Source of the DNA: a virus
Taxonomy: Duplodnaviria; Heunggongvirae; Uroviricota; Caudoviricetes
IMG/VR virus record: IMGVR_UViG_3300035158_000899
Strand: one strand, 5' to 3'
Length of the DNA stretch: 50,593 bases
In this document: piece by piece, positions 3,423-30,458 of the stretch
Layout: each line of letters opens with the position of its first letter
Position numbering within the stretch: the stretch's first letter is position 1
Notes under the pieces: generated by a model
The model's input: the letters and a program-made list of their open reading frames with translations, nothing else
The model's database searches: none
Told to the model about the DNA's origin: nothing
Position numbers and translations under genes: made by a program

Positions 3423-3655
3423 TGCACTATAAAACAGGTGAGTGGTATAGACTAAGAGATGATGTTATTGGTGAAGCTAAGTTTATACTTGTGTTAGGAA
3501 GGAAAGAATGTGATTATAGGAAAAGTTTTCTTGGGTGTAGCAACAAACGCTGTAAAGGCCTTTTAGAAGTAGTAGGAAGTAGTGAACCTATTTGTGGTTA
3601 CAGTTTTGGTGCAACAACATATAAACTGGTTAAGAAACAATGCATTACGAAATAG
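3422..3655 (+). CDS. YKIG-family Cys-rich small protein
   Basis: MHYKTGEWY...GRKEC...CKGLLEVVG...ICGY. Confidence 0.8.
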   Translation: MHYKTGEWYRLRDDVIGEAKFILVLGRKECDYRKSFLGCSNKRCKGLLEVVGSSEPICGYSFGATTYKLVKKQCITK

Positions 3656-3873
3656 GTGAATGGTACGTAATAAAAGATGAATATACATCACCAAGGGCTG
3701 ATGCGCCGCCTAGATTGATACTTGTAATAGGCCGTAAACCTTGTGGTCCTTGCGACACTAAAACATGTGAAGGCCGATTAGAAGTATTAGGAGGGGATTA
3801 TTTGGTTTGTGGTTATGCTTACAGCAGGCCAATATATAAGCCATTAGAGGACAAGGAAGAAATTTGGCAATAA
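3640..3873 (+). CDS. YKIG-family Cys-rich small protein
   Basis: MHYEIGEWY...GRKPC...CEGRLEVLG...VCGY...PIYK. Confidence 0.8.
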   Translation: MHYEIGEWYVIKDEYTSPRADAPPRLILVIGRKPCGPCDTKTCEGRLEVLGGDYLVCGYAYSRPIYKPLEDKEEIWQ

Positions 3874-3893
3874 ACCTTTTTCCTTTCTCTTCA

Positions 3894-3936
3894 TTTTGTA
3901 AGGGTAGAAAAAATAAAAAATCCTATTTAGAGTTAG
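3894..3936 (+). promoter_or_regulatory. repeated intergenic motif TTTTGTWAGGGTA-N17-TATWTAGAGWTAG, copy 1
   Basis: ttttgtaagggtagaaaaaataaaaaatcctatttagagttag; near-identical copies elsewhere, each upstream of a gene start. Confidence 0.65.
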
Positions 3937-3990
3937 AGAGAAAAATCAGCCCGTAAAAAGTGGCTGAATCATAACACAAAAGGAGGAGTT

Positions 3991-4320
3991 ATGTCTTTTC
4001 AACTCAAGGAGCTGGACACCAGCAAGTTGCAGCTGGGTGTTCGAAAGTCGTTGACGCCGGACGTGCTTCGTGAAAACATTACGAAGTATGGTAAGGTAAA
4101 TTGCACGGAGAATGACGGTAAGATCCGTGTGATTGTTCGGTATCACAATCACGTGATTGCCGCGTACGAAACCCCTGGCGAACTTGACAATGAAGTTCGT
4201 GCGAAGATTTCCGCAGCAATCATAAAGCGGATTTCGGGGTGCAATGATGAGGAGGCGCAAAAGTACATCGATGCGCTTCACAATTCACAGAAGGCTGCAA
4301 GAGCAGCAAAGAAGAAATAA
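3991..4320 (+). CDS. basic protein, YHNHVIA paralogue A
   Basis: AGGAGG RBS; similar to 11816-12166 (KYGKVNxTE..GK...IVRYHNHVIA). Confidence 0.8.
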   Translation: MSFQLKELDTSKLQLGVRKSLTPDVLRENITKYGKVNCTENDGKIRVIVRYHNHVIAAYETPGELDNEVRAKISAAIIKRISGCNDEEAQKYIDALHNSQKAARAAKKK

Positions 4321-23462: not shown

Positions 23463-23708
23463 ATGTATTACAAAATAGGTAGGGTATACGGGCATAGTGT
23501 AGCGAAGATGTTTCTTCCAGTGCCGGTATTTGAAAAGTTTCTTTTAGTAGGAAGAGAAGAATGTAAAAAACCTTGGTGTGATTGCAATATGGGTAGTAAG
23601 TGTCAAGGCAGTTTAGTTACTATAGGAGATAGAATTCACAGTGGCGGATGTGGATATTGGCCAAGTGGTAAACCAATTTATACAGAAGTGAAATGCATTA
23701 CAAAGTAG
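23463..23708 (+). CDS. YKIG-family Cys-rich small protein
   Basis: MYYKIGRVY...FLLVGREEC...CQGSL...CGY...PIYTEV. Confidence 0.8.
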   Translation: MYYKIGRVYGHSVAKMFLPVPVFEKFLLVGREECKKPWCDCNMGSKCQGSLVTIGDRIHSGGCGYWPSGKPIYTEVKCITK

Positions 23709-23914
23709 GCAAGATATATAGAGGGCTGGGTGTCGATATACTTGTATTAAAGAGAGTTGAACGTAAAAAGTGTATCAGCTTTAGATCCGTATCATCGAGG
23801 TGTGATAAGTGCAAAGGTCTTATTATTGGTTTAGGTACACCACTTGAAGAGAATTGTGGGTACTTTATGGACGGGACTCCAATATTTAAAGAAGTGAAAT
23901 GCATTACAAAATAG
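23693..23914 (+). CDS. YKIG-family Cys-rich small protein
   Basis: MHYKVGKIY...CDKCKGLIIGLG...CGY...PIFKEV. Confidence 0.8.
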   Translation: MHYKVGKIYRGLGVDILVLKRVERKKCISFRSVSSRCDKCKGLIIGLGTPLEENCGYFMDGTPIFKEVKCITK

Positions 23915-24117
23915 GTAAGATATACGAGAGCAAGTTATTTGGAAGTAGATTCCTTTTAGTGGGTAGAAAAGAATGCTCGAATCGTCACGATGGCTGCTCA
24001 CTTAAATGTGAAGGTACATTAGTTGGTGTAGGAGATATATCTATTTCCGGTTGTGGTTATGTGGGTAAAGCAGGAGGACATGAACCTATATATAAAGAAG
24101 TGAAAACCAAAACCTAA
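23899..24117 (+). CDS. YKIG-family Cys-rich small protein
   Basis: MHYKIGKIY...FLLVGRKEC...CEGTLVGVG...CGY...PIYKEV. Confidence 0.8.
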   Translation: MHYKIGKIYESKLFGSRFLLVGRKECSNRHDGCSLKCEGTLVGVGDISISGCGYVGKAGGHEPIYKEVKTKT

Positions 24118-24134: not shown

Positions 24135-24746
24135 ATGTCTCTCGTTTCACAAAAGTACAAACTCTCAATTACGTTTACAGGTCCTATTCTTGGTAGTCAA
24201 CCAGGAAAGGATACCCCTGCAAGTGATTTCATTCGGGATAAAGTTAGGAAAGAAAATCCGGATGCAGATATTGCAGATGAAGTTCCTACACTTCCTGAAG
24301 AGCTTGAAAAAGGCACTACAGGATTTCATAGGGACGCAAAAGGAAAACCTATACTTTTCAACTATCAAATAAAAGGGGTGATAAAAGCCGCTGGCGATGT
24401 TCTTAATGGTTTAGATAACTTCAGAGCATTGAAATCAAAAATCACTAATACGGTGTTTGTTAGTCCACGTCAAATCCCCATAAAAGGGAAGTTGCGTAAA
24501 CAACCGCTTGAGAGACCTTTGTTAGGTCAGACTATGAAAGGGCCGAGAACTAGTTTAGCTCGATCTGAAGTAATTGAAGAAGGTGCTAAAATTGTATGTG
24601 AACTCGAAGTAATGCTAACGCCAAAGGTAAAACTTCCAGAAGAGACACTTAGGGATATTTTGGATTATGCCGCTAAGTTAGGCGTCGGGCAGTGGCGTAA
24701 TAGTGGAATATACGGACAGTTTGAATACAAACTCGAAGCGTTGTGA
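24135..24746 (+). CDS. solitary Cas7/RAMP-like protein (putative Vipr-type effector)
   Basis: N-terminal strand YKLSITFTGPILGS, central GKPILFNYQIKGVIKAA helix (cf. RAMP P.IPGSSLKG), C-terminal G-rich loop LGVGQWRNSGIYGQF; AGGAGG RBS; no other cas gene in window. Confidence 0.75.
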   Translation: MSLVSQKYKLSITFTGPILGSQPGKDTPASDFIRDKVRKENPDADIADEVPTLPEELEKGTTGFHRDAKGKPILFNYQIKGVIKAAGDVLNGLDNFRALKSKITNTVFVSPRQIPIKGKLRKQPLERPLLGQTMKGPRTSLARSEVIEEGAKIVCELEVMLTPKVKLPEETLRDILDYAAKLGVGQWRNSGIYGQFEYKLEAL

Positions 24747-24747
24747 T

Positions 24748-25371
24748 AGTTTCGTAACGTACCATAACACAACGTATCGTTGGGGTAATACATAGTGCGG
24801 TTAAGTAAGGCGCCGGCAGGGTAGGGTAGTGTTCTGGCCGTATAGTTTTGTTCAGTATTGGCGAGGTACGGCGTAATTTGGTCCGGTGTTGGTTTAGTTA
24901 GGTTTGGTTGGTTTCGTCGGGTTCGGTGCTGGCTAAGTTTGGTAGAGCGAAGCACAGCACAGGCAACGTTATGTAGGGTATGGTACTGTGACGTTTTGGC
25001 AAGGTACTGCGCAGGACAGCTGAGCGCAGTAGTGGCTGGGTAATGTGTGGCGATGTTATGTACAGTAATGTTTCGGCTTAGTCCCGTAAAGCACAGTCAC
25101 GGCAGGGTAACGTAAGGTGCAGAGGATGTGGTATTGTGTGGTAGAGGTAATGTGCAGGACAGCTGAGCGCAGTAGCGGCAGGGCGCTGAGTAGCACAGCA
25201 CAGTAGTGTGTTGCCTTGTACTGGCATGGCAATGTTCAGTTTAGTACAGTATTGTGTCGGTAATGTCTGGTCGGATGTCGTGAGGTGGTGGTAATGTGTG
25301 GCGAGGTGCCGTGGGGTGGTAGTATGGTAAGGTTGTGTGTGGCGGAGCATAGTGCAGTAATGGTACTGTTA
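24748..25371 (+). repeat. degenerate 5-nt-period NGY-NN tandem array, putative non-coding guide RNA
   Basis: ~110 NGY triplets spaced by variable dinucleotides, e.g. ggc-aa ggt-ac tgc-gc agg-ac agc-tg agc-gc agt-ag; GC content well above flanks; starts 1 nt after the RAMP stop and ends at the next RBS. Confidence 0.85.
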
Positions 25372-25380
25372 AGGAGAAAC

Positions 25381-25629
25381 ATGTATTATAAAATAGGAAA
25401 GATGTACAAGAACAAGTCTTATAAGTTTTTACTTATAGGAAGAGTAAAATGTAGTGGATGTTATAATTCTCTACATATGAAACATATAAATATAGACGCC
25501 AATGGTTGTTATGTAAAATGCAGAGGTAGATTAAAGATAGTAGGAAAAGCTCACGGGTTCGATAATAGTAATTCAACAATATGCGGTTATGGAATAAATA
25601 AACCTATATTTGAAGAAATGGAGGAGTGA
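25381..25629 (+). CDS. YKIG-family Cys-rich small protein
   Basis: MYYKIGKMY at 25381 after AAGGAG; FLLIGRVKC...CRGRL...ICGY...PIFEEM. Confidence 0.8.
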   Translation: MYYKIGKMYKNKSYKFLLIGRVKCSGCYNSLHMKHINIDANGCYVKCRGRLKIVGKAHGFDNSNSTICGYGINKPIFEEMEE

Positions 25630-25823
25630 TTATGTTTTATTGTTCAAAGTGCAATGAAATGCTTGTAGAAGATAGTAATGATTCAAGACAAGAATGGGTT
25701 GAAACTTATTATCATTGTCCTGAATGTGATGCAGAATATACAAGACGGACAGAATACAAGACACAATCTCATTTAGTTGAGTCTGATATTTTGTATGATG
25801 CAGAAGGAAATGAGGTAAAATAG
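25626..25823 (+). CDS. small zinc-ribbon protein
   Basis: CSKC...CPEC. Confidence 0.65.
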   Translation: MIMFYCSKCNEMLVEDSNDSRQEWVETYYHCPECDAEYTRRTEYKTQSHLVESDILYDAEGNEVK

Positions 25824-25833
25824 AGGAGGCATA

Positions 25834-26016
25834 ATGCTTGATATCGATGCGATAGGAGTATTACAAGCTATACAAGCCTATAAGAAACACGCAGAACGTC
25901 ATAAGAAAACGCACATAGATTGCGTTAATAATATAATAGATATTGTGTTTGGTACTTTTGGAATTAAGCTCGAAGTACAGCATACAGATTGTGTAGGGAA
26001 AATCGAAGGGGATTAA
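25834..26016 (+). CDS. hypothetical protein
   Basis: ORF track; GGAGG RBS. Confidence 0.55.
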   Translation: MLDIDAIGVLQAIQAYKKHAERHKKTHIDCVNNIIDIVFGTFGIKLEVQHTDCVGKIEGD

Positions 26017-26079
26017 GAATGTTAGAAAGAATAGCAATTGCGTGTATAGCAATATTGATTTTAACATTAGCTGTTTATT

Positions 26080-26415
26080 TTGAGCCACGATTTAGAAATA
26101 AAGATGGCTAAAATATTAGGTATTAGAGATACTTACACATTAGCTCATTTTGAAAATTTTTCAAAAGAACAATCGCTTGCTATGAGTGAAGGAAGATTTA
26201 AACTTCCTAAAAGATCAATTAAATGTGAGATTGGCAAATGGTATAGAGCAACAAATGAAAGAAGTATGTTCCTTGCAGCGAGGAAAATAACTTGTCCCTT
26301 TACACCCAATTACACTTTTTGTGTCGATTGTAAAGGTGCAATAGAAGGGGTAGGGATAGAAAGACCAGTTTGTCCAATGATGGGTAACATAGAAGAAATA
26401 AATAATGTATTATAA
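26080..26415 (+). CDS. protein with C-terminal YKIG-family domain
   Basis: ...KCEIGKWY...CVDCKGAIEGVG...VCP...EEI; start uncertain. Confidence 0.6.
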   Translation: MSHDLEIKMAKILGIRDTYTLAHFENFSKEQSLAMSEGRFKLPKRSIKCEIGKWYRATNERSMFLAARKITCPFTPNYTFCVDCKGAIEGVGIERPVCPMMGNIEEINNVL

Positions 26416-26668
26416 AATAGGTAAAGTATATAAAAACAAAAAGATAGTTGATTTTGTAGAGATTGATGCAAATGGAAGCAAACCTACTTCGGTTGATAGG
26501 ATTCTTGTTTTAAGAAGAAAAGAATGTGCACATAAGTTTTGTCAGAAGCAAAGGAATATACCTAATTGTCAAGGATTGATAATTTGTTTAGGACATAAGA
26601 ATCAGCTTTGCGGATATTCATATGAAACAGGTGAACCCTTATTTGAAGAAATAAGCAATGTATTATGA
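26405..26668 (+). CDS. YKIG-family Cys-rich small protein
   Basis: MYYKIGKVY...RRKEC...CQGLIICLG...LCGY...PLFEEI. Confidence 0.8.
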   Translation: MYYKIGKVYKNKKIVDFVEIDANGSKPTSVDRILVLRRKECAHKFCQKQRNIPNCQGLIICLGHKNQLCGYSYETGEPLFEEISNVL

Positions 26669-26864
26669 AGTAGGAAAAGTATACCGGATAACGGATAGCG
26701 TATTTCCTTCAAGCAAAGTAGTGGGTAAAACATTCCTTTTAATTAAACGCGAAGCATGTGTTGACCGAATGCCACAATGCGGCACCTGTAAAGGAGAATT
26801 GACGGGAGTAGGCATTGATATATCTCTTTGTCCTATGTATTTAAAAATAGAGGAAGTAAAGTAA
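26658..26864 (+). CDS. YKIG-family Cys-rich small protein
   Basis: MYYEVGKVY...FLLIKREAC...CGTCKGELTGVG...LCP. Confidence 0.8.
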   Translation: MYYEVGKVYRITDSVFPSSKVVGKTFLLIKREACVDRMPQCGTCKGELTGVGIDISLCPMYLKIEEVK

Positions 26865-27106
26865 TGTTTTATAAAATAGGGAAGATGTTTAGCGGTTCTG
26901 ATCATAAGGGGACTTTTCGTTTTTTAGTTATAGGAAGAGCTGCATGTTCTCTTAGTCCTAGCTGTAATAATAAGCACTGTAAAGGCGGATTAATTATAGT
27001 AGGCGATAGACCAATTTGGGCGGGCAAGATTGGTCCATTTTGTGGTTATGATTATCTTAATGATGTGCACGATCCGGTTTTTAAAGAAGTAAAAAATGAA
27101 ACTTAA
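26864..27106 (+). CDS. YKIG-family Cys-rich small protein
   Basis: MFYKIGKMF...FLVIGRAAC...CKGGL...FCGY...PVFKEV. Confidence 0.8.
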   Translation: MFYKIGKMFSGSDHKGTFRFLVIGRAACSLSPSCNNKHCKGGLIIVGDRPIWAGKIGPFCGYDYLNDVHDPVFKEVKNET

Positions 27107-27692
27107 ACCAGGGAAATTATGTATAACAAAGGATGGTAAGAAATCTCTTGTTATTAAGAATGAGGCATGTAAAGATAGAGGGGTGTTTGGCGAAGCGTGC
27201 GATAAATGCGAAGGTATAGCAGTTGGCATAGGAGATGTGTACCATTTCTGCCCTGTAGCGGTTGGACAAATAAAGACAAAGACAAGATTTCGGTTTCACC
27301 CTTTTGTTAGCAGGACAACTACGGGACTCAAAAAGATATTCAACGATAATAAAGTAATTGTTGAAAACTCTTGTGACATACCAACAAATTTAAGTGTAAG
27401 CATACCAACTGACTGGTGGTGCGGTTATGTAGCACTCAAGAGAGGGGTTGAAATTCCTGAAGACTGGATTGAATATTCTACAGTAGAATCAGATATTGAT
27501 GTTCACGGAGGGCTTACTTATAGTTGTGTATCAGGTGATTATACAGTGTTTGGTTTTGATTGTAATCATTATAGTGATGAACATGATCCTGATAAGAGAA
27601 ATCCGATATGGCTTATGAAAGAAGCAATGCGAATGGAAAAGAATTTAAAGAAGCAAGCAAAGAAATTTATGAAGAAAGGGAGGCTAAAGTGA
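27096..27692 (+). CDS. fusion: divergent YKIG-like Cys domain + CGYV/HGGLTY/GFDC phage domain
   Basis: MKLKPGKL...CDKCEGIAVGIG...FCP then WWCGYV...VHGGLTYS...GFDCNH. Confidence 0.7.
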   Translation: MKLKPGKLCITKDGKKSLVIKNEACKDRGVFGEACDKCEGIAVGIGDVYHFCPVAVGQIKTKTRFRFHPFVSRTTTGLKKIFNDNKVIVENSCDIPTNLSVSIPTDWWCGYVALKRGVEIPEDWIEYSTVESDIDVHGGLTYSCVSGDYTVFGFDCNHYSDEHDPDKRNPIWLMKEAMRMEKNLKKQAKKFMKKGRLK

Positions 27693-27694
27693 GA

Positions 27695-28087
27695 ATGGAT
27701 GTAGAAATTAAAACATCTGAAGTTTTTAAAGAGTTTTCGAAACTTAAAGCAAAGGAAATGCTCAAAGTAGGTAAAATAATTGGCATTGTTATAGCTGTTA
27801 TTTTGGCAGTGATTGGGATCGGTTATTTAACTGGACTAGGTGTAATTGCAATGATTCCTGTAAAATATGCAACAGAAAATCCGCCTACAATTATTGATAT
27901 AGTAGGAACTGGGCTTTTAACATTATGCGCTATATTTATGATTGGGCTCGTTTGTTATTTGATGTTTAGATACATAATATTTAACTTTATGGTATTAGGG
28001 TTGAAACGTTGGATATCAGGTAATTGGTATGAAGCTAAATGGAATGTGCGACAGAGAAAAGAGAGTGAAGAATGTACTACAAAATAG
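27695..28087 (+). CDS. membrane protein (2 TM)
   Basis: Two hydrophobic segments; GGAGG upstream. Confidence 0.6.
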   Translation: MDVEIKTSEVFKEFSKLKAKEMLKVGKIIGIVIAVILAVIGIGYLTGLGVIAMIPVKYATENPPTIIDIVGTGLLTLCAIFMIGLVCYLMFRYIIFNFMVLGLKRWISGNWYEAKWNVRQRKESEECTTK

Positions 28088-28299
28088 GCCAATGGTATAA
28101 GAATCGTGGGTATAGAGATATACCTAAAATATGCTTGGTAACAAACATAAAGAAGTACAAAAGAGGTAAGACTGATTGGTGTCCGAGAATGTGTTTCGGT
28201 ATGATAGAAATATTAGGTGCAAAGAATGAGTTAGAATGCGGTTTTGATGCAGTTTCAAAAGTACCTATACTTGAAAGAATGGAGAAATATGCTGTATAG
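28072..28299 (+). CDS. YKIG-family small protein
   Basis: MYYKIGQWY...CPRMCFGMIEILG...CGF...PIL. Confidence 0.8.
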   Translation: MYYKIGQWYKNRGYRDIPKICLVTNIKKYKRGKTDWCPRMCFGMIEILGAKNELECGFDAVSKVPILERMEKYAV

Positions 28300-28654
28300 A
28301 ATAGGTAAGATGTATCATGGATTTAACGTTGCTAATTATATGAATGACTATAAAAAGTTTTTTCTTATAGATAGAGTAGAATGTGATTGTAGGTCGAAGC
28401 TTACCTGTTGTCAACATTGTAAAGGAAAGTTAAAGGTTATAGGATACGAGAAACCATTTTGTGGTTATGTACATAAACCAAATACTGTAATAGCAAGGTA
28501 TGCAGAAGTAAAAGAAGAACCGGCTGAATCTATAGCATTACCTTTGGTAAAATACAATGAGAAAGACGAGCCTATATACGGAAGTGTACCTGTACGTTAT
28601 TTACGAACATATCTTAAAGAACCCACGCAAAGAGAACAGTGGAAGGTACAATGA
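28289..28654 (+). CDS. YKIG-family protein with C-terminal extension
   Basis: MLYRIGKMY...FLIDRVEC...CQHCKGKLKVIG...FCGY...YAEV. Confidence 0.75.
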   Translation: MLYRIGKMYHGFNVANYMNDYKKFFLIDRVECDCRSKLTCCQHCKGKLKVIGYEKPFCGYVHKPNTVIARYAEVKEEPAESIALPLVKYNEKDEPIYGSVPVRYLRTYLKEPTQREQWKVQ

Positions 28655-28860
28655 AATATAAAGTAGGTGAATGGTATAAAAAAGGTGAGTCTATATTCCT
28701 TTTGACGAGGAGAATAGGTTGCAGATCACCTATAAATGGTTTATACATTTGCAGAGAGTGTAAAGGAAAAATAGAAGGTTTAGGCTTGGATAAACCCTGG
28801 TGCCCTTATGATGGCAGTGGATTTCCAATATTTACTTTAGTGAAAAAGGAGAGAAAATGA
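28651..28860 (+). CDS. YKIG-family Cys-rich small protein
   Basis: MKYKVGEWY...FLLTRRIGC...CRECKGKIEGLG...WCPY. Confidence 0.8.
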   Translation: MKYKVGEWYKKGESIFLLTRRIGCRSPINGLYICRECKGKIEGLGLDKPWCPYDGSGFPIFTLVKKERK

Positions 28861-29156
28861 TAACCGTTTATCATAATGAGCGATTTGTTGATTTTGCACT
28901 TTTAGATGAAGAAGCAGCAATTAAAATGTTTAATGAGTTACCAAATAATACTACCGTTTTAAAGAAAGTAGCAGAAGTTAATACTGATGATTTAGAAAAA
29001 GCGTTCGAATTGACAAATCATATCGATCATAGTTGGGAAGACAACCCAGAGGTAACGCTTATTGAAAAATCTCGATCTACAAGTACAGGCGATATTATGG
29101 AAAAAGATGAGAAACTGTATATTGTTTTAAGTGTTGGCTTTGCGGAGGTGAAATAA
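28857..29156 (+). CDS. YodL-like domain protein (tentative)
   Basis: LEKAFELTN...RSTSTGDI...YIVLSVGF resembles the YodL-type SxSxxD/GF pattern. Confidence 0.45.
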   Translation: MITVYHNERFVDFALLDEEAAIKMFNELPNNTTVLKKVAEVNTDDLEKAFELTNHIDHSWEDNPEVTLIEKSRSTSTGDIMEKDEKLYIVLSVGFAEVK

Positions 29157-29314
29157 GGAAGCATGTTTATTATTATTTGTTATTCAAAAGCAAGTAATGC
29201 TACGATTGTAACAGATGAGAATGGTGAGAATTTAGTATTTGAAAGCGGTCCTGAAGCAATAGAGTATGCAAAAGCAAATTGTATTGAAAAGTATGCAATA
29301 GCTTATTTATCGTG

Positions 29315-29581
29315 ATGCATTACAAAATAGGTAAAGTATACCAGGTAAAGGAAGAATTTAAGTTCTATACTAGATTTAGTAAGAAGTTTTTTCTTATTAA
29401 AAGAATAAAATGTTCTTTTGTAGATGCAGTAACTTGTAAGTTTTGTAGTCTGTGTTCTGGCGAAAGACTAATAGGCGTTGGTGATTGTAGTAACGAACCT
29501 TTTTGTGGTTATGCAGAACAATATAATGAGGGCATAGTAATATATGAAGAGGTGAGGGATGTTGATAATATTTCCGAATAA
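29315..29581 (+). CDS. YKIG-family Cys-rich small protein
   Basis: MHYKIGKVY...FLIKRIKC...CSLCSGERLIGVG...FCGY...IYEEV. Confidence 0.8.
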   Translation: MHYKIGKVYQVKEEFKFYTRFSKKFFLIKRIKCSFVDAVTCKFCSLCSGERLIGVGDCSNEPFCGYAEQYNEGIVIYEEVRDVDNISE

Positions 29582-29990
29582 AGAGATAGTTGAAGTAAGA
29601 TATAAACAATTAAGAGCAGAACTTATTAATGCTCAAAATGACGAAAGAATAACCATAGATGTACTTAACAATATAAAAGAACGACTTGATGCAGTTAGAT
29701 TCTTAAAGAGAGTGCATGAAGATGTTAAGCTTAGAAGAGCCATTAAAAGGAAACTTAATAGAATAGATGAAACATTATCCACAAAAGATATAAATGAAGT
29801 AGCAGATGCTAATAGTTGTCTTTGTATAAAGTGTTTTTCAATAGTTGGATTACCTAAGCATATTGATTATCCTAATGGATTAAAATGCCCTAAATGTGGA
29901 AGTTCATTAATTGAAATAGAAAGAAAGACAGTAAAGAAAAGAGCATGTAAAACAAAGAGAAGGAGTTTTATTGAATACAAGAAGAGTTGA
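29559..29990 (+). CDS. hypothetical protein with C-terminal zinc ribbon
   Basis: CIKC...CPKC. Confidence 0.65.
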   Translation: MLIIFPNKEIVEVRYKQLRAELINAQNDERITIDVLNNIKERLDAVRFLKRVHEDVKLRRAIKRKLNRIDETLSTKDINEVADANSCLCIKCFSIVGLPKHIDYPNGLKCPKCGSSLIEIERKTVKKRACKTKRRSFIEYKKS

Positions 29991-30245
29991 ATTCACCAGC
30001 TACCTCGAACCGGACAAGTATTATCAGGTACTCGGTAATTCAGATAATAATCGCAAAGCAATTAGATACGACCAGTATAAAGTAGTTAAGTTTGAAGTAG
30101 GCAAGCTATATAAATGGATAAATTATATGATGCGAAAAGCGAAAACGAAGAACGCATTCTAGTGCTAGGTATTCCCTGAAGTTATAGATGAAGCAGAAAT
30201 TAAGCAAACAACAGAGGAGAAATCCTGTATTAGATAGGAAACAAA

Positions 30246-30458
30246 ATGAAATACGAACCGAGTAAAATGTATCAGTTTAAAGATAATAAGCATGTTAAGT
30301 TTTTACTCATCGGAAGAGAAGCTAAAAACGCTAAGTGTAAAAATTATAAATGTGATAAGGCGTGCAAGGGGTTTCTTAAAACTATAGGCGGTTATAATGG
30401 GCTTTTTTGTGGTTATAGAATGAACGGCGTTCAAATATATCAAGAAGTTAAAGCTTAA
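30246..30458 (+). CDS. YKIG-family Cys-rich small protein (divergent)
   Basis: MKYEPSKMY...FLLIGRE...CDKACKGFL...FCGY...IYQEV. Confidence 0.75.
   Translation: MKYEPSKMYQFKDNKHVKFLLIGREAKNAKCKNYKCDKACKGFLKTIGGYNGLFCGYRMNGVQIYQEVKA

Follow-up and report, generated by a model that had tools for sequence, protein, structure and literature searches.

One-base register slips as probable guide boundaries in a staggered vrRNA-type array of a viral contig

The stretch of viral DNA analyzed here (the window, 50,593 nucleotides) carries a tract of five-nucleotide repeats whose register is broken at short intervals by one extra base, which raises the question of what these breaks mean for the RNA. An earlier, sequence-only reading took them for module or processing boundaries, so that one transcript would encode many guides, or else for a bulge in the target code. 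That reading placed the tract at 24789-25371; its true start lies earlier, at 24748, at the stop codon of the upstream gene.

24135..24746, (+): vipr, encoding a stand-alone Cas7/Csm3-like RAMP protein of 203 aa, directly upstream of the array
24748..25371, (+): staggered vrRNA-type array of ~122 N-G-Y-n-n units, starting at the vipr stop codon and reaching the ribosome-binding site of the next gene

Of 117 parsed units, 113 have G at position 2 and 112 have a pyrimidine at position 3, the first and the last two positions being variable; in this array, only about one-third of the internal units begin with G. The pentamer array is not a chance product, since it scores 126.8, whereas none of 200 dinucleotide shuffles exceeded 18.3 and no other part of the window exceeded 8.7. 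The parse is gapless, with neither spacer nor tail between modules. Searches of the locus revealed no nuclease gene and, on the sense strand, no promoter or terminator; hammerhead ribozymes do not separate the guides, as they do in ribozyme-interspersed VIPR, and Rfam returned no match at E 1. Folding predictions rendered the array less structured than its own shuffles (z +1.47), with no stable fold. The ribosome-binding site of the next gene (25372-25384) follows the last unit directly and in pentamer register, so processing of the array or Vipr binding could affect that gene.

The protein model (AlphaFold2, pLDDT 88) resembles Csm3 (Z 13.4, rmsd 2.6 over 147 residues) and type VII Cas7 (Foldseek E 9e-9). 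Pfam and PDB sequence searches gave no match, and PHROGs a single weak, unnamed one. Profile alignment (hhalign) of the 120-sequence family with the Vipr of Escherichia phage SUSP1 (YP_009199429.1) covered 171 columns with the G-loop aligned (E 1.9e-4, probability 47%), which points to a distant homology, weak yet full-length. VIPR is a CRISPR-related DNA silencer described in 2026 (10.64898/2026.04.26.720920). On the basis of the Cas7/Csm3-type RAMP fold and of the family profile alignment to SUSP1 Vipr, we assign the locus to VIPR. Consistently with this assignment, the RAMP protein has an RRM core, a thumb and a G-loop and is encoded outside any CRISPR locus, and its gene adjoins a pentamer array of the VIPR kind (GGY/NN or a related consensus, e.g., YNNNG). 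No accessory gene recurs beside vipr in 135 loci and the neighbors in this window are nonrecurrent, so we regard the system as a vap-less form. The two largest recurring neighbor clusters in the 135 loci are antisense over the vipr gene itself.

SUSP1 Vipr holds the first G of each unit by H17 and D177 (10.64898/2026.04.26.720927). These residues align with S21 and Q186 here, the glutamine being present in 119 of the 120 family members, whereas W187 and R188 are retained in the family; in SUSP1, the corresponding W-R pair holds the second G together with the pyrimidine. As judged from this alignment, loss of the first-G contacts likely explains the free first base of internal units.

Staggered vrRNA arrays with YNNNG-type repeats, in which each guide ends where the next one begins with a one-base offset, have been described already (10.64898/2026.04.26.720920, fig. 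S18 legend). There, as here, a stand-alone RAMP gene adjoins a pentamer array with one fixed G per internal unit, and neighboring guides follow each other without a spacer, shifted by one base. Comparison with the text, methods and legend of that report uncovered no difference in kind, and on this basis the array is the staggered layout already described rather than a new one. In the same parts of the report, boundary processing is drawn in fig. S18 and is absent from the confirmed layouts, those confirmed by sRNA-seq being listed as ribozyme-interspersed and single-guide only; for the staggered layout, the text reports neither statistics nor a GG signal, and neither module lengths nor experimentally mapped ends (10.64898/2026.04.26.720920). 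As far as these parts of the report go, staggered arrays thus appear to be the sole VIPR layout without published RNA-end data.

The better characterized SUSP1 system (type II) loads one protomer per 5-nt unit, pairs with gaps, and silences by binding (10.64898/2026.04.26.720920; 10.64898/2026.04.26.720927; 10.64898/2026.10.15.759431). It has in common with this locus a homologous protein, the W-R pair of the G-loop and the 5-nt period; presumably, the skip-1 reading, in which every third target base is passed over, is also common to both. SUSP1 guides consist of 9 to 16 strict GGY units, end in a 3′ pseudoknot tail and are accompanied by vap1, whereas modules here have 5 to 9 N-G-Y units and no tail, S/Q stand in place of the H17/D177 contacts, and no conserved accessory gene exists, which sets the locus apart from type II. 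Class 1 CRISPR systems (Cas7/Csm3) resemble it in the RAMP fold, in the many guides per transcript and in signs of polar module turnover, but they are built on a repeat-spacer array, a cas operon and a 6-nt step, as opposed to the 5-nt step and gapped code here; the flanking window of the 117-kb contig contains neither a CRISPR-type tandem array nor cas-like neighbors.

To locate the slips, we ran Viterbi parses with and without information at unit position 1 and at three penalties, all of which gave the same result.

24783..25361, (+): 17 +1 slips, 16 followed by GGY and 10 by GGC, bounding 16 internal modules of 26 to 46 nt
Extra base of the first nine: 24783, 24814, 24859, 24890, 24930, 24961, 24997, 25033, 25074
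Extra base of the last eight: 25100, 25145, 25176, 25222, 25258, 25289, 25320, 25361
24835..25124, (+): three −1 slips (~24838, ~24909 and ~25124), inside modules

The parse blind to the first base thus recovered the approximately 17 one-base insertions, all but one preceding GGY, that had been counted by hand, along with the segment lengths of ~26 to 46 nt, which hold for all 16 slip-to-slip intervals. The hand count of 11 GGC comes to 10 in the parse (a reading of 24835-24838 as a +1 step followed by a −2 step, in place of a single −1 step, reproduces 17, 16 and 11 exactly), and one of the examples listed for GGC is in fact GGT. Modules of 4 to 9 pentamers had been proposed; from slip to slip they comprise 5 to 9 units, and a 4-unit module arises only if the −1 slips, which were missing from that account, are taken as boundaries. 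The latter are probably single-base losses, since the family as a whole has 18-fold fewer −1 than +1 steps. None of 200,000 random placements confined all 16 intervals to 5 to 9 units, and the spacing variance is 1.6, compared with 37.8 under random placement. With the slip at the vipr stop codon also counted, G is overrepresented after slips relative to elsewhere (Fisher p 8e-6), as is GGC (p 4e-6). Both signals are significant under a replication-slippage null that duplicates one random junction base (P 6e-5 for G, 2e-6 for GGC), the outcome on which the slip-GGC association had been made to depend, and a null duplicating only the scaffold G leaves an excess of C (P 8e-4). The base that had been called as inserted has about the composition of an ordinary first base, and a slip is therefore described most economically as one extra G in front of the scaffold G. 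We conclude that the slips are real and selected.

Pentamer arrays adjoin most vipr homologues, and this locus is one of hundreds of similar loci (homologous loci are given below by L numbers). Comparing slips among homologous arrays, as the sequence-only reading had proposed, showed that the grammar holds in 91 nonredundant arrays, which contain 1268 +1, 70 −1, 24 +2 and 12 −2 steps (+1:−1 = 18:1). Their modules average 5.6 units with a variance of 3.9, versus 25.9 if slips were random, and the first position is G in 89% of first units versus 21 to 31% of the others. The G after the slip is enriched in 89/89 arrays and persists at 85% of 1262 slips. The junctions carry further biases, namely, AA as the variable pair in 31% of last and 26% of first units, and an excess of C at position 3 after slips in 68/86 arrays. 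In 14/89 arrays, however, GGC follows no slip; the GGC association noticed in this array is thus lineage-specific, and the general signal is the extra G. The grammar can now be stated in quantitative terms, with one extra G per 5 to 9 units and a full GGY reserved for the start of each module, and it yields exact predicted ends. Some arrays are very long, with 250 to 313 units and 39 to 50 slips (L085:2732-4264, L178:3590-5201 and L055:3517-4800). In L029 and L030 (~3580-4000) and L053 (~2560-2945), the best pentamer parse lies on the strand opposite vipr and its slips are not followed by G, probably reflecting a different repeat frame.

Several modules of this array are instructive as to whether slips also bound evolving units.

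24998..25033, (+): 7-unit module, the last 6 units of which are a copy of 25146-25176, aligned at the 3′ slip
25146..25176, (+): 6-unit module, the partner of 24998-25033
25177..25222, (+): longest clean module, 9 units with 18 specified target bases
25259..25320, (+): two adjacent 31-nt modules, a diverged tandem duplication from slip to slip

The dispersed pair is identical at 16/18 variable positions and the tandem pair (25259/25290; TRF period 31, 80%) at 13/18. Among related strains, L003 and L005 encode the same Vipr protein and are identical over the distal 700 nt but differ in the gene-proximal modules, with the junction ≤6 nt from a slip, and L103 and L104 lose identity from a slip onward. 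Indels between L032 and L034 and between L054 and L068 can be placed from slip to slip. Three clean indels (L132/L135, L083/L108 and L073/L074), in contrast, break inside modules and create chimeras whose sizes are still in range. Slips are hence not obligatory recombination boundaries; these three indels indicate that they are maintained as a property of the product and are not the sole crossover sites. The 5n+1 length of slip-spanning indels was discarded as evidence, as in-register recombination forces it. The replacement in L003:4660-4960 versus L005:4660-4800 has the polarity of CRISPR leader-end acquisition; in L103/L104, the direction is reversed.

Whether gapped target matches stop at slips, another check set by the sequence-only reading, received a positive answer for a single module of a homologous array, whose decoded match starts and stops at slips, and no target turned up for this window. 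Among viral contigs, L234 alone holds an exact gapped match to module 25177-25222 (antisense, at the beginning of a gene, with the skip on the wobble base); this match was rejected as a target because about one is expected by chance and no other module converges on that contig. No module of this window found a target above chance; a local scan of 0.96 Mb with skips of 0 to 3 and contiguous three-base rules yielded no excess over controls, nor did the window's own DNA or L234. The informative module, L209:1062-1107, belongs to a homologue from a Clostridia MAG. Decoded by the skip-1 rule from the first unit after a slip, its 9 units read MATGTGKTK, motif I (Walker A) of SF2 helicases. It has 16 exact viral matches, compared with a single match each for two further patterns of 18 bases, and 15 of the 16 lie in frame at the SF2 helicase motif, among others in type I restriction subunits and in SNF2 helicases of phages. 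Three of them come from one IMG/VR dataset (L271, an SNF2 helicase, L278 and L280) and fall on the same helicase motif, and genomes of the host family hold near matches with one mismatch. The modules on either side of L209:1062-1107 match the target flanks at only 9 to 33% (skips 0 to 3), a pattern that favors separate guides over a bulge, bearing in mind that the module was chosen post hoc among 134 modules of ≥9 units and that the flank mismatch could reflect target divergence.

Broader surveys were less productive. When 1443 modules were pooled and tested in frame against local genes, they showed no excess over unit-shuffled controls, and gut modules of L150, L183, L176 and L202 had chance-level or zero matches in viral contigs or in 401 family genomes. 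Variable pairs nonetheless fit sense codon positions 1 and 2 best of the frames (KL 0.077 versus 0.100 for all frames), which lends modest support to the skip-1 reading. Upon decoding, L148:906, L202:1090, L085:2819 and L085:4045 recall what we take to be a primase, an AAA+ sensor-I, the end of a Walker A motif and an XRE helix, respectively; the search with the L202:1090 module returned one match, at chance level.

The family-wide grammar, the two slip-ended duplications and the L209 match support the proposal that slips are module boundaries and that one transcript gives rise to many guides. We consider it probable that these are separate guides, cut at the slips. The array would store the guides of a phage VIPR system of the vap-less kind and, as its layout suggests, would be cotranscribed with vipr. 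One Vipr protomer would occupy each 5-nt unit, as shown for SUSP1, and replacement of the residues that read the first G would permit internal N-G-Y-n-n units. One extra G every ~5 to 9 units breaks the 5-nt register; a filament falling out of register at this base would end the guide there, and the next would start with a full GGY. The exposed junction is most likely cut, presumably by a nuclease, to release guides of 26 to 46 nt without tail or ribozyme. Their n-n pairs would name the DNA target with every third base skipped, usually the wobble base of the coding strand, and the target would be silenced by binding, as shown for SUSP1 and indirectly supported here. The short length of the modules counts against separate cut guides, as typical ones specify 10 to 12 bases only, with fewer units than the 9 to 16 repeats of characterized vrRNAs. 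The same holds for the failure of this window's modules to find a target above chance, the null result of the pooled test, the three indels that break inside modules, and the restriction of sRNA-seq confirmation to the two other layouts.

The same modules could act as independent guides on an RNA that remains uncut, a long transcript on which several short Vipr filaments are strung like beads. All of the sequence statistics accommodate this arrangement equally well, as do a locus devoid of nuclease gene, ribozyme, tail and terminator and an array less structured than its shuffles, but the AA and C biases at the junctions suggest a recognized site and characterized VIPR arrays yield discrete RNAs, so we deem it rather unlikely. 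It is improbable that the extra G is a scar left by module addition or recombination and does nothing in the RNA. Such a scar would account for the polar turnover in L003/L005, where the junction adjoins a slip, for the identity lost from a slip in L103/L104, for the whole-module duplication at 25259-25320 and for the indels in L032/L034 and L054/L068. However, a neutral scar would decay, whereas the post-slip G endures at the large majority of slips, and the clean indels that break inside modules leave module sizes in range.

Reading adjacent modules together, with the slip as a bulge or hinge in a longer guide, would restore specificity to modules that average fewer than six units, and the viral match of module 25177 does run two units into the upstream module if zero bases are skipped at the slip. 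This match, though, is at chance level and ends after those two units, the L209 match extends to neither side at any skip, and modules are duplicated and reordered singly; the bulge alternative of the sequence-only reading thus found no support, and we give it a slim chance. Replication-slippage noise in a degenerate repeat is virtually untenable. A GG can come from duplication of the scaffold G, and 9/17 junctions hold another doubled base, but the 18-fold predominance of +1 steps, their peaked spacing, a C excess beyond what G duplication yields and the same rule in every one of the 89 arrays speak against it, and the spacing and slippage nulls refute it at P below 1e-4.

Returning to guides cut at the slips, a bolder extension holds that the freed first base also pairs, providing a three-base code per unit, and that Vipr itself reads the extra G as a processing signal of one letter. 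If true, it would explain how guides of 5 to 6 units attain specificity and how they mature without tail, ribozyme or nuclease gene, yet we consider it quite unlikely. Only weak hints favor it: the contacts with the first G have disappeared, stop triplets show a 13% depletion (272 versus 313), and the L209 module yields Met and Lys correctly from its free bases. These same bases match only 1 to 5/8 of the skipped target bases, and searches with three-base target patterns found no match. Independently of this extension, the lost contacts probably explain in structural terms why the first base is degenerate, and if one added G suffices to delimit guides, multiplexing would be very compact.

Other observations concern the surroundings of vipr. 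About 12 short Cys-rich paralogues with a MYYKIG-like start flank the locus (window 23463-24117 and 25382-30458); the two compared with PHROGs had no match, and the four searched for were absent from 233 homologous loci. In L001:7868-8539, an HNH gene, either an accessory nuclease or a homing endonuclease, lies between a vipr gene (66% identical) and its staggered array. Finally, two contigs each bear two vipr copies with the same array (L038 and L039; L192 and L193).
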